Below, piece after piece: positions 3,818-64,000 of a stretch of 64,000 nt of DNA (the first letter of the stretch is position 1; every line of letters begins with the position of its first letter). The stretch spans positions 511,521-575,520 of the forward strand of contig JANVYR010000002.1 in NCBI GenBank assembly GCA_030059665.1, in the 5' to 3' direction. The translations under genes and the position numbers were made by a program. The DNA is from Candidatus Calditenuis fumarioli. GTDB lineage: Archaea; Thermoproteota; Nitrososphaeria_A; Caldarchaeales; Calditenuaceae. The notes below the pieces were generated by a model. That model made no database searches. It saw only the letters and a program-made list of their open reading frames with translations, and was not told the DNA's origin.

Positions 3818-4405
3818 ATGAGCGGCCAGCAGTACCCTGAACCCAAGATCGAGATACAGAACGTGGTCGCGTCGGTCACCCTGAACCAGAAGCTCGACCT
3901 CCAGGCGATACAGAACGCCTTCCCGCAGGTGGACTACAAGCCGGCCCAGTTCCCGGGGCTGGTCTTCAGGCTCGAGAAGCCGAGGACGGCCACGCTGATC
4001 TTCAGCAGCGGCAAGATGGTCTGCACCGGAGCGAAGAGCGAGGAGGAGGCGAGGAGGGCCGTGATGCGCGTGGTCCGCCTCCTGAAGGAGAAGGGCTTCC
4101 TGATCAAGGAGGAGCCGATCATCGAGATACAGAACATCGTGGCCTCGATAGACCTCTTCGGCAGGATCGACCTAGAGCTCGCCGCCAACACGCTCGAGAA
4201 CGTGATGTACGAGCCGGAGCAGTTCCCCGGGCTGATCTACCGGATGTCGTCGCCGAAGGTGGTGATCCTGATGTTCGCGAGCGGCAAGCTCGTCTGCACC
4301 GGCGCCAAGACCGAGAGGGAGGTGCACGAGGCCATCAGGAAGCTCTCGGAGGAGCTGAGGGAGAAGGGCCTGATCACCTACGTCAGCCAGGTCGCCGGCA
4401 GCTGA
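3818..4405 (+). CDS. tbp: TATA-box-binding protein
   Basis: Two repeats: IQNVVAS..YKPAQFPGLVFR..LIFSSGKMVCTGAK and IQNIVAS..YEPEQFPGLIYR..MFASGKLVCTGAK. Confidence 0.99.
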   Translation: MSGQQYPEPKIEIQNVVASVTLNQKLDLQAIQNAFPQVDYKPAQFPGLVFRLEKPRTATLIFSSGKMVCTGAKSEEEARRAVMRVVRLLKEKGFLIKEEPIIEIQNIVASIDLFGRIDLELAANTLENVMYEPEQFPGLIYRMSSPKVVILMFASGKLVCTGAKTEREVHEAIRKLSEELREKGLITYVSQVAGS

Positions 4406-4459
4406 ACCGGTTGCTCCACAGCTTATAGCGTACTCAGCATACTCTTCAAATGAGGAGGG

Positions 4460-5092
4460 TTGATGCTGGTCCAGCTCCTCCTGCCCTTCCACTGCCCCTG
4501 GTCCCAGTTCCTCAGGTCGAAGGGCCTGAAGTCTGGGATCGTGAGGTGCGTGCCCAACCAGGAGACGGGAGGTGTCACCGCACTGGTGAAGGTCAGGTCG
4601 GAGGGAGCGCAGCCCAGCGAGGTGGAGGGATTGGTGGGGTCCGCGAGCGGCGTGGTCGGTGCCAAGTTCCTCCGGTCCCACGACGGCTCCTCCCTGGTAG
4701 GTCTGGTCCGGACCAGCAGGTGCATGTGCGCGATGTCTGGGATACCCCTCAGGAAGGTGATAGGCGTCTCCGAGGACGAGCGTGGGATCAGGATCAGGGT
4801 GCTGCTCGACGAGCCCTCGGAGCTCAACGACCTGATACGGGAGGTCACGGCGCGCGGCTTCAGGCCGTCGATAGAGGAGGTGGTGCAGCTGAGGGAGGTC
4901 GAGCGGAGGCCGAGGCTGAAGCCCAGGCAGGAGCAGCTCCTCCTCGCTGCCCTCGAGCTCGGGTACTACGAGGTGCCGAAGCGGGTCGGTACCAGGGAGC
5001 TGGCAGATCTGTTCGGCGTCTCACCCAGGGCGGTCTCGGAGGTCCTGAGGAGGGCCCACAAGCGGCTCGTCGAGAGCGCGCTGCTCGGCTGA
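4460..5092 (+). CDS. Transcriptional regulator with C-terminal HTH_10 (bacterio-opsin activator type) domain
   Basis: LKPRQEQLLLAALELGYYEVPKRVGTRELADLFGVSPRAVSEVLRRA. Confidence 0.85.
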   Translation: MMLVQLLLPFHCPWSQFLRSKGLKSGIVRCVPNQETGGVTALVKVRSEGAQPSEVEGLVGSASGVVGAKFLRSHDGSSLVGLVRTSRCMCAMSGIPLRKVIGVSEDERGIRIRVLLDEPSELNDLIREVTARGFRPSIEEVVQLREVERRPRLKPRQEQLLLAALELGYYEVPKRVGTRELADLFGVSPRAVSEVLRRAHKRLVESALLG

Positions 5093-5217
5093 CGTAGGTT
5101 GCTTCTCGGTGACCGGAAGCCGGCGTCGAATCATCGAGCGCTACGCTTTGTCATCAGATCGGCATTCGGTGCGCAGGGAAGGGCCGGGGTTCAGAGTTCG
5201 TAAGGGTTGCGGAAAGC

Positions 5218-5264
5218 TCAGCGGTATTCCCCCTCATCACCGATCAGAAGGCGGTGTTCATCAT
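5218..5264 (-). ncRNA. Box C/D methylation-guide sRNA (16S rRNA target)
   Basis: Minus strand: ATGATGA (C) ACACCGCCTT CTGA (D') TCG GTGATGA (C') GGGGGAATACCG CTGA (D). The D guide is complementary to 16S 63707-63716. TTTAAA box at 5292-5297. Confidence 0.92.
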
Positions 5265-5514
5265 CGTCTCCATCACTGCTCTGAGTTCCGATTTAAACGT
5301 TCCAGGAGCTGGGGGCTCACGGGGCGAACGGTACCTTCGGGCCCTCACGAGGCCCCTCGAACCGGAGCACGGCAGCCGGGTTGCGGCGCGGTTCAACGCG
5401 TCCCACGAACGGGTGCAGCGCACCTCTCCTCCTCATTTAGTTAGGTCCGAAGCTGCGCCCTAACGTGGCTTGAGTTTATGAGTTGGCTTCGGAATCGAGA
5501 TGTCTGGCTGGGTT

Positions 5515-5588
5515 GCCTGGGTAGTATAGCCAGGTTAGTATACCGGCCTGTCGAGCCGGTGACCCGGGTTCAAATCCCGGCCCAGGCG
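5515..5588 (+). tRNA. tRNA-Asp(GTC), no intron, CCA not encoded
   Basis: Acceptor GCCTGGG/CCCAGGC plus G discriminator, anticodon arm CCGGC-CT-GTC-GA-GCCGG, T loop GGTTCAAATCC; TTTATGA box at about 5474. Confidence 0.98.
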
Positions 5589-5802
5589 CTAAAACTCGCT
5601 GTTTTGAGAAATCGGTAGTTTGATTGTGAGCAGGAAAACAGAACAAAGGCCGAGCGACCGGATTTTCCATCAGCAGAGGAATTTCGTGGATCGACCCCTC
5701 TCGCTCACCAGGCCAGGGAGGCCGGGAAAGTCTCACCCTCCTCGGCTCCAGAACTCCCCGGAGACGGGGACTCCCCTGCTTCCAAAAGATATTTGAGGCG
5801 AC

Positions 5803-7422
5803 GTGCTTGCGGAGTCGGCGCGGGGTGGTCGAATCGATTACGTCGAGCTTCTGGACACGACCCTCAGGGACGGCTCACAGACGAGAGGCGTAACCTTCAC
5901 CCTCCGCGACAAAATCAGGGTGGCGCAGCTTCTCGACGAGCTGGGAGTGGACCTGATAGAGGCAGGCTGGCCCGGTTCCAACCCGAAGGACTCCCTGGTG
6001 TTCAAGGCGCTGAGGGAGGCGGGGCTATCCAGGAGCAGGGTCGCGGCGTTCGGCAGCACCCGCAGGAAGGACCTCAGGCCCGAGCAGGACCAGTCGCTCA
6101 ACGCGATACTCGAGGCCGACGTCCCGGTCGCTGTGATCTTCGGGAAGTCCTGGACGCTTCACGTGACCGAGGTTCTGAGGTGCTCGCTGGAGGAGAACCT
6201 GAGGATGGTGACCGAGTCGGTGGAGTACCTGGTCGATCACGGGCTCGAGGTGGTCTTCGACGCGGAGCACTTCTTCGACGGTTACAAGGACTCGCCGGGT
6301 TACGCGGTCTCCGTGCTGAGGGCCGCGCTGGAGGGCGGTGCGAGGGCCGTGGTCCTCTGCGACACCAACGGCGGCTCCCTACCCCACGAGGTTGAGTCGA
6401 TCGTCAGGGAGGTGCGGGAACTGCTGAAGTCGGGGGTGACGCTGGGCGTACACACCCACAACGACGCCGGCTGCGCGGTCGCCAACACGATCGTTGCAGT
6501 GAAAGAGGGGGTGAGGCACGTACAGGGGACGATGATCGGACTGGGGGAGAGGTGCGGCAACGCTGACCTTACGCAGGTAATTCCGGCGCTGGTGCTGAAG
6601 ATGGGCCTAGACTGCCTCGGTGGCGGTGCGAGGGAGAAGCTGCGCAGGCTGAGGGAGGTGGCGCTGACGGTCTCCGAGCTCACGGGGTTCCCGGTCATGC
6701 CCAACCACCCGTACATCGGAAGGAACGCCTTCGCTCACAAGGCCGGAGTCCACATCGACGCGGTGCTGAAGAACCCGAGGGCCTACGAGCACGTCGATCC
6801 CTCCTCGGTCGGTAACGAGAGGTCCTTCTCGGTCTCGGAGCTCGCTGGGAGGGCGACGATCGTCGAGGCCGCGAGGCGCCTCGGGATAGAGCTGAGCAGG
6901 GAGGAGGCAGGGCGGGTGCTGGAGGAGGTGAAGAGGATGGAGGCGGACGGTCACCACCTCGAGGGAGCCGAGGCGACGGTCACGCTGCTCCTGCTGAGGT
7001 CTCTCGGTAGGCTCGTCGAACCCTTCAGGCTCGTCTCCTGGCACGTCGAGACCGGGTACGAGGGCAGTCGAGGGCTGAACTCGAGGGCGACCGTAACCGT
7101 GGCCGTCGGCGACTCGATCGTCTCCTCCTCAGGGGAGGGCGTGGGCCCAGTGCACGCGCTGGACGTGGCCCTCAGGAGGGCCCTTGTGATCAGGTTCAGG
7201 CAGCTCGAGGACGTCAGGCTGACCAATTACAAGGTCTCCGTGATAGGCTCCGACGACGGAACGTCGGCCTCGGTCAGGGTCTACACGGAGTTCAGCATCG
7301 GGCACAGGACGTGGTCCACCACCTCGGTCTCGAGGAACGTCGTCGACGCCAGCGTAAAGGCCCTGGTCGACGGATACGTCTACGCGCTCGCCTTCGGGCT
7401 TCAGGGGGACCGCAGCACCTGA
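5803..7422 (+). CDS. cimA: Citramalate synthase (LeuA/CimA family)
   Basis: DTTLRDGSQ, IEAGWPGSNPKD, CDTNGG, HTHND, GERCGNA, AFAHKAGVH, C-terminal regulatory domain (GVGPVHALD). Confidence 0.85.
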   Translation: MLAESARGGRIDYVELLDTTLRDGSQTRGVTFTLRDKIRVAQLLDELGVDLIEAGWPGSNPKDSLVFKALREAGLSRSRVAAFGSTRRKDLRPEQDQSLNAILEADVPVAVIFGKSWTLHVTEVLRCSLEENLRMVTESVEYLVDHGLEVVFDAEHFFDGYKDSPGYAVSVLRAALEGGARAVVLCDTNGGSLPHEVESIVREVRELLKSGVTLGVHTHNDAGCAVANTIVAVKEGVRHVQGTMIGLGERCGNADLTQVIPALVLKMGLDCLGGGAREKLRRLREVALTVSELTGFPVMPNHPYIGRNAFAHKAGVHIDAVLKNPRAYEHVDPSSVGNERSFSVSELAGRATIVEAARRLGIELSREEAGRVLEEVKRMEADGHHLEGAEATVTLLLLRSLGRLVEPFRLVSWHVETGYEGSRGLNSRATVTVAVGDSIVSSSGEGVGPVHALDVALRRALVIRFRQLEDVRLTNYKVSVIGSDDGTSASVRVYTEFSIGHRTWSTTSVSRNVVDASVKALVDGYVYALAFGLQGDRST

Positions 7423-11709: not shown

Positions 11710-11770
11710 GGGGTCAGGGTGAGCTGGGCTCCTCATCCGTCGTCGGATACTGCGACCCTCTTCATCCCCC
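11710..11770 (-). ncRNA. Box C/D methylation-guide sRNA (probable 23S rRNA target)
   Basis: Minus strand: GGGGG ATGAAGA (C) GGGTCGCAGTAT CCGA (D') CGACGG ATGAGGA (C') GCCCAGCTCACC CTGA (D) CCCC. Two 12-nt guides, a terminal G/C stem, and an upstream CTAAATTT TATA-like element. Confidence 0.85.

Positions 11771-63076: not shown

Positions 63077-64000
<924 letters not shown>

Follow-up and report, generated by a model that had tools for sequence, protein, structure and literature searches.

The window analysed here, a stretch of 64,000 nucleotides from the hot-spring archaeon Candidatus Calditenuis fumarioli (order Caldarchaeales, formerly 'Aigarchaeota'), carries near its beginning a compact cluster of short motifs on the minus strand (5264-5218) and at its far end the 5' portion of a 16S rRNA gene. 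This arrangement raises the question of whether the cluster is a genuine box C/D sRNA gene and, if so, which nucleotides of the 16S rRNA its two guides would select for 2'-O-methylation. The explanation that best accounts for the observations, to which we assign a probability of about 0.87, is a box C/D sRNA whose D guide is directed to A635 of the 16S rRNA, and whose D' guide pairs with a second 16S site to uncertain functional effect.

Layout of the element

Read 5' to 3' on the minus strand, the element and its upstream region comprise the following features (coordinates are those of the window unless a contig is named).

5297-5292, minus strand: TATA-like box TTTAAA, with 27 nt between it and box C
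5268-5265, minus strand: predicted start of transcription, with GACG as a short 5' leader; BLAST similarity begins at 5268-5266, and Rfam C/D alignments start from 5268
5264-5258, minus strand: box C, ATGATGA (consensus RUGAUGA), of which UGAUG is invariant in an eight-sequence alignment
5257-5248, minus strand: D' guide (spacer) ACACCGCCTT, 10 nt, as read from the sequence
5247-5244, minus strand: box D', CTGA, invariant in the eight-sequence alignment
5243-5240, minus strand: D'-C' linker TCGG, 4 nt, variable in sequence and 4-11 nt long in homologues
5239-5234, minus strand: box C', TGATGA, invariant in the eight-sequence alignment
5233-5222, minus strand: D guide (spacer) GGGGGAATACCG, 12 nt, with GGGAATACC or GGGAGTACC kept in all homologues
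5221-5218, minus strand: box D, CTGA, invariant in the eight-sequence alignment

An earlier note on this DNA, made from the sequence alone, had read C, D', C' and D boxes on the minus strand with a TTTAAA upstream of box C. These boxes proved correct base for base across 5264-5218, and the TTTAAA is present at the measured gap given above. Both terminal boxes that define the class, C (RUGAUGA) and D (CUGA), are thus found in the candidate sRNA, together with the internal D' and C' boxes and the short (4-nt) linker that the class demands. Against a class-wide spacer length of about 12 nt, the D spacer measures 12 nt, and the D' spacer measures 10 nt here and 10-11 nt family-wide. Beside boxes C and D, where a terminal stem would be placed, the three Calditenuis copies display no complementary pairing; to our knowledge, the terminal stem that closes the C/D K-turn is not strictly required in archaea. 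The start site of the sRNA was placed by the usual archaeal distance between TATA box and transcription start, and we infer that the TTTAAA box is the promoter of the sRNA.

Probable box C/D identity and protein partners

A strict search for the C-D'-C'-D arrangement returned this single site in the whole 1.57-Mb, 62% G+C genome, and no second canonical C/D gene was recovered from that genome by either strict or one-mismatch box searches. At Rfam gathering thresholds, the whole window yielded the 16S rRNA and a tRNA-Asp only, and no C/D family. When thresholds were relaxed, positions 5268-5215 gave full-length alignments to about 25 archaeal C/D families; snoPyro_CD (RF00095) ranked first at 31.7 bits (E 3e-5; gathering threshold 45 bits), with other sub-threshold scores for sR3 (29.8 vs 41 bits) and sR1 (29.4 vs 45 bits). 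That all of these scores fall below gathering is expected, because the Rfam models also encode family-specific guides. Within the genome, the element is the top snoPyro_CD-like match.

The proteins that act with box C/D sRNAs were identified on the contig that holds the window (C2) and on a second contig (C1).

C2:21132-21806: fibrillarin, PF01269, 323.9 bits
C2:21917-22591: Nop5, PF01798, 230.5 bits, in a gene adjacent to that for fibrillarin
C1:210817-211086: L7Ae, PF01248, 109.1 bits

The element resembles known archaeal box C/D sRNAs (snoPyro_CD RF00095; Sulfolobus, Pyrococcus sR1, sR3) in its C-spacer-D'-linker-C'-spacer-D layout of about 50-55 nt, its canonical boxes, its 12-nt D spacer with a 10-bp duplex and N+5 geometry, the placement of both guides on nearby sites of one rRNA, and the presence of fibrillarin, Nop5 and L7Ae in the genome. 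It differs from them in having a D' spacer of 10 nt rather than about 12 nt and no terminal stem, and from the curated Rfam families in scoring under every gathering threshold.

Conservation across Caldarchaeales and Thermoproteota

A BLAST search of 40 relatives with a query of 131 nt around the element gave seven matches, all of them limited to query positions 53-103, which correspond to window 5268-5218 (51 nt). In a same-genus comparison, the 16S segment was 100% identical and the flanks of the sRNA were unalignable except for GTTTAAATCG. Both this block and its 27-nt spacing are shared without change by the two same-genus copies, although the intervening sequence has diverged. Most copies, those from other families included, have a TATA-like box 26-28 nt upstream of box C.

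We built a sequence-only homologue model (R1) from eight copies, and its search of 76 Caldarchaeales genomes identified 28 strong copies, distributed over families f1 (in genus g1 only), f3 and f4; the class-level genome set consists of the same 76 genomes as the order-level one. A 151-genome sample of the phylum added three copies outside the order (in genomes G148, G155 and G153), with the same guide pair. Most homologues carry a terminal stem of 3-5 bp (GGGC/GCCC or GGGGC/GCCCC), which is absent from the three Calditenuis copies. The three homologues from outside the order share with the Calditenuis element its layout, the predicted adenosine, a D' guide ending in CGCCTT and a D guide that reads GGAGTACC, and the compensatory changes in their guides fit each genome's own 16S. 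They differ from it in their degenerate C' and D' boxes (TGAAGA, CAGA, CCGA), in a D' spacer of 11 nt whose 5' half is A-rich and non-pairing, and in a D' site that pairs over just 6 bp with the 16S.

The distribution of the element is patchy, as is usual among C/D sRNA genes (PMC7994747). Model and pattern searches failed to recover it from four of the seven Calditenuis genomes (66-90% complete), from genera g2, g3 and g4 of the host family, and from genus g7, and a pattern search for the D guide beside box D found no extra copies in genera without a model match.

The D guide and its predicted target in the 16S rRNA

The proposed targets of both guides lie within the portion of the 16S rRNA gene included in the window.

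63077-64000, plus strand: 16S rRNA gene, 5' two-thirds, cut by the contig end (Rfam RF01959, 895.6 bits)
63707-63716, plus strand: 16S target of the D guide, CGGTATTCCC; predicted 2'-O-methyl site A63711 (16S nt 635)
63763-63769, plus strand: candidate 16S target of the D' guide, AAGGCGG; predicted site C63767 (16S nt 691)

The D guide forms 10 contiguous Watson-Crick pairs with the 16S, from position 1 and abutting box D, which confirms the perfect 10-nt pairing at 63707-63716 described in the earlier note. Its application of the N+5 rule holds as well, both for A63711 and C63767 and for the corresponding 16S positions 635 and 691 counted from 63077. Within the genome's own rRNA and tRNA (8.2 kb), the anchored 10-bp match of the D guide is unique, and a match of this kind was reached by 1.5% of composition-matched shuffles of the guide (a frequency of about 0.015). 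Biochemically, archaeal C/D RNPs work best with a 10-bp duplex formed from a 12-nt spacer; natural spacers are about 12 nt long, at most 10 nt of the substrate are read, and duplexes of 9-10 bp are efficient (PMC7229835).

Fifteen genomes allowed sRNA and 16S to be read together, and in all 15 sRNA-16S pairs the D guide selects the identical adenosine through a duplex of 8-11 bp. Three combinations of target and guide were distinguished.

Calditenuis and most of the order: 16S target GGUAUUCCC, guide GGGAAUACC
Genus g6 (Terraquivivens): 16S target GGUACUCCC, guide GGGAGUACC
G148 and G155: 16S target GGUACUCCU, guide AGGAGUACC

The resulting compensatory pairs (UAUUCCC/GGGAAUA, UACUCCC/GGGAGUA and UACUCCU/AGGAGUA) reveal co-variation of guide and target at duplex positions 6 and 10, which reflects few evolutionary events and runs in the direction that the model predicts. 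Taken together with the conservation of the guide, these compensatory changes make the assignment of the D-guide target firm, and A63711, already proposed in the earlier note, now has comparative support that includes co-variation at two positions. It is accordingly highly likely that the D guide targets A635 of the 16S (window 63711), with methylation at this nucleotide predicted by the N+5 rule.

To place these sites in E. coli numbering, we take m7G527 and G693 as anchors; the equivalent of A676 is placed at the base of helix 23, on its 5' strand, and that of C732 in the h23a/h22 region immediately 3' of that helix. Counted on the 16S alignment, A63711 then corresponds to about E. coli A676 and C63767 to about C732 (PMC4644070 supplement). 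In Pyrobaculum calidifontis, the guide GCCGGAGTACCT of sRNA PCAsR136 pairs with 16S GGUACUCCGG, and the N+5 rule selects the same adenosine, the equivalent of E. coli A676 (PMC4644070). PCAsR136 is unlike the Calditenuis element in that its A676 guide occupies the D' slot, it has degenerate boxes (GTGAGGA), and its partner guide is unrelated to CCGCCTT. From the sequences compared, the two RNAs would share a target site, and their membership in one gene family is not demonstrable. With its guide to the same adenosine, PCAsR136 provides a precedent for the A676 equivalent as a predicted archaeal methylation site.

Possible roles of the D' guide

The D' duplex of the Calditenuis element consists of seven contiguous pairs, an A·G mismatch and one further pair, formed by a 10-nt spacer at a site 56 nt downstream of the D site. 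The seven contiguous pairs with AAGGCGG at 63763-63769 are those listed in the earlier note, which had been more cautious about this guide and had considered that its imperfect pairing might reflect a decayed guide or a different target. Such caution was justified by the 7-bp duplex, the 10-nt spacer and the drift in register described below, but a decayed guide is the less likely reading: the D' core beside box D' is conserved phylum-wide, reading CCGCC(TT) within the order and CGCCTT in the distant Thermoproteota copies, with free variation confined to the 5' half of the spacer, and this makes a short but maintained guide likelier than a decayed one. The D' duplex is thus sub-optimal yet clearly maintained. 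We consider that the D' guide probably contacts 16S nt 687-693, and give roughly even odds to the prediction that it methylates C691 (window 63767).

The main alternative, to which we give odds a little short of even, accepts the C/D sRNA as real but holds that only its D guide methylates, the D' guide, at 10 nt and 7 bp, being of insufficient length to position fibrillarin. The D' guide would then act as a tether or chaperone that joins both flanks of helix 23 during folding, or would be a relic. This is consistent with the 7-mer match of the D' guide not being significant by itself, as it was reached in 65% of shuffles when allowed anywhere (frequency 0.65) and in 5.6% when required to lie no more than 100 nt from the D target (0.056). 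A D' register that is off by 1 nt in three of the 15 genomes (G029, G034 and G050) and ambiguous in two (G062 and G063) also ill fits one fixed site, and the D' guide pairs over 6 bp in G148 and G155, where efficient substrates form 9-10 bp (PMC7229835). Dual guides with targets less than 100 nt apart, a pattern that the 56-nt distance fits, are typical of the class, and a chaperone role has already been proposed for them (PMC7994747). However, the CGCC(TT) core is kept from Calditenuis to distant Thermoproteota, which argues for selection on pairing in a fixed register, and the same C is chosen in 10 of the 15 pairs.

A more elaborate proposal, which we regard as speculative and rather unlikely, is that of an ancient dual-guide sRNA family of Caldarchaeales and other Thermoproteota in which the short D' guide (6-8 bp, from a spacer of 10-11 nt) would have been selected for a role other than methylation. 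With the D guide on the 5' flank of 16S helix 23 and the D' guide clamping the 3' flank, the sRNA would serve as a dedicated folding chaperone of the platform domain, and methylation of A635 would be a by-product or a checkpoint.

It is very improbable that the D' guide aims elsewhere, for instance at tRNA-Arg(CCT), which carries AAGGCGG at tRNA positions 23-29. In the scan of the genome's own RNAs this tRNA ties with the 16S site (8 of 10 Watson-Crick pairs, 7 contiguous), but the N+5 rule would there point to the anticodon stem, at about position 27, where no guided methylation is known to us, and the 16S site shows no variation among the genomes examined and is 56 nt away from the D target.

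For the preferred reading, i.e. a C/D sRNA with its D guide on A635, the known mechanism of the class suggests the following course. Boxes C and D would form a K-turn and boxes C' and D' a K-loop, both bound by L7Ae, and a Nop5 dimer would bridge the two motifs, carrying two fibrillarin molecules. The 12-nt D spacer, whose 10-bp pairing with 16S nt 631-640 is established above, would then position A635 for 2'-O-methylation by fibrillarin at the nucleotide given by the N+5 rule. The 10-nt D' spacer forms 7-8 bp with nt 687-693 of the 16S, a pairing of uncertain function that may direct formation of Cm691 or serve chiefly to tether the nascent rRNA in the manner of a chaperone.

Genomic setting and transcription

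The element sits in a 420-nt gap that extends from an HTH_10 protein gene to a tRNA-Asp gene, with a TBP gene further upstream and a LeuA-like gene downstream. No ORF crossing the element has a Pfam match.

4460-5092, plus strand: HTH_10 protein gene, flanking the sRNA gap
5515-5589, plus strand: tRNA-Asp (Rfam, at gathering thresholds), flanking the sRNA gap on the other side

An index of RNA runs listed none that matches this DNA. Three raw hot-spring metatranscriptomes were mapped to window positions 4300-6300, which received zero reads in two runs and 105 reads in the third (X6). Run X6 contains the organism, as 74 of these 105 reads are at least 99% alike. Over 4300-5370, all X6 reads have their first mate on the minus strand, and since reads of the plus-strand LeuA-like gene have the same orientation, those at the locus represent plus-strand RNA. 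Minus-strand reads were absent from the locus in X6, a 150-nt paired library of which about 5% was read and which cannot capture a 50-nt RNA, so that this run is no valid test for a minus-strand RNA of that size.

The X6 reads indicate that the HTH_10 mRNA extends about 280 nt beyond its stop codon, over window 5104-5370 on the plus strand. This read-through crosses the sRNA gene in antisense, with a depth that declines from about 14 to about 2 and fades by about 5370, and the convergent overlap of the two transcripts could permit transcript interference.

The idea that the boxes are a chance cluster in an intergenic region or 3' UTR, with no functional minus-strand RNA, might draw on the exclusively plus-strand reads at the locus and on Rfam scores under gathering thresholds, but the library used cannot capture 50-nt RNAs, conservation is confined to exactly 51 nt with flanks that diverge even within the genus, the order contains 28 homologues and the wider phylum others, guide and target co-vary, and the TATA box is held at a conserved fixed distance, such that we reject a chance arrangement, on conservation and co-variation, as exceedingly improbable.

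The box C/D sRNA reading put forward in the earlier note is thus supported by conservation of the element as a unit, promoter spacing, encoded protein partners and guide-target co-variation. We are strongly confident that the element encodes a box C/D sRNA under a promoter of its own; positions 5268-5214 on the minus strand probably constitute an independently transcribed gene of about 52-55 nt.

Other candidate guides, and rRNA and tRNA genes

A second C/D-like candidate is found in the window at 11711-11769 on the minus strand (G000:C2:523231-523289). It has a GGGG/CCCC terminal stem, degenerate ATGAAGA, CCGA and ATGAGGA motifs and a CTGA box D, and scores 14 bits against snoPyro_CD. More plausible C/D sRNA genes, with terminal stems and degenerate C' and D' boxes, were noted at C2:388449-388505 (minus strand), C3:79865-79922 (minus), C1:378436-378491 (plus) and C1:73707-73768 (minus). 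From these candidates, it follows that the genome has a set of guides, of which 5264-5218 is the only fully canonical one.

Beyond the order, two MAGs assigned to Thermoprotei/Thermoproteales contain C/D sRNAs (L034 3564-3601, minus strand; L039 4712-4749, plus strand) with the D' guide ACTACCGCCTT. The core of this guide next to box D' is again CCGCCTT, but it is coupled to an unrelated D guide, ACTGGACCTAAG, and the pair exemplifies how guides re-assort among sRNA genes. The L034 and L039 assemblies yielded no 16S.

The remaining part of the 16S rRNA gene is located at the end of contig C1 (856414-857045, minus strand); the 16S ends of C2 and C1 overlap at model positions 830-906, and the contigs could therefore be joined there. 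The 23S rRNA gene (G000:C2:363427-367108, minus strand) is 3682 nt long against a 2987-position model, which suggests that it carries about 700 nt of insertions or introns. Some 210 kb separate it from the 16S gene, so the two rRNA genes are not linked. In G036, G040 and G038 (genera g7 and g11), the 16S has an insertion of about 124-226 nt at the equivalent of window 63757/63758, between the two predicted sRNA target sites; the insertion probably represents an rRNA intron. Both it and the sRNA are missing from other g7 genomes, so there is no evident link between them. ARAGORN predicted only 36 tRNAs in the Calditenuis genome, several with ambiguous anticodons and a length of about 90 nt (C1 163011-163104 and 78585-78674), which are probably intron-containing tRNA genes.

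Significance

The Calditenuis element is very probably a real, uncatalogued guide RNA that directs fibrillarin to one adenosine of the 16S rRNA, where methylation is predicted. The known C/D mechanism is unchanged by this finding, and a well-known class of RNA gains an uncatalogued member. Our literature search found no published sRNA catalogue for Caldarchaeales, and the element represents a first well-supported C/D guide RNA, along with a predicted 16S Am site, for this uncultured order. One guide pairing and its A676-equivalent site have been maintained, with co-variation, across distant Thermoproteota. The family should thus be useful both for the annotation of Caldarchaeales and other Thermoproteota genomes and for studies of how methylation guides evolve.
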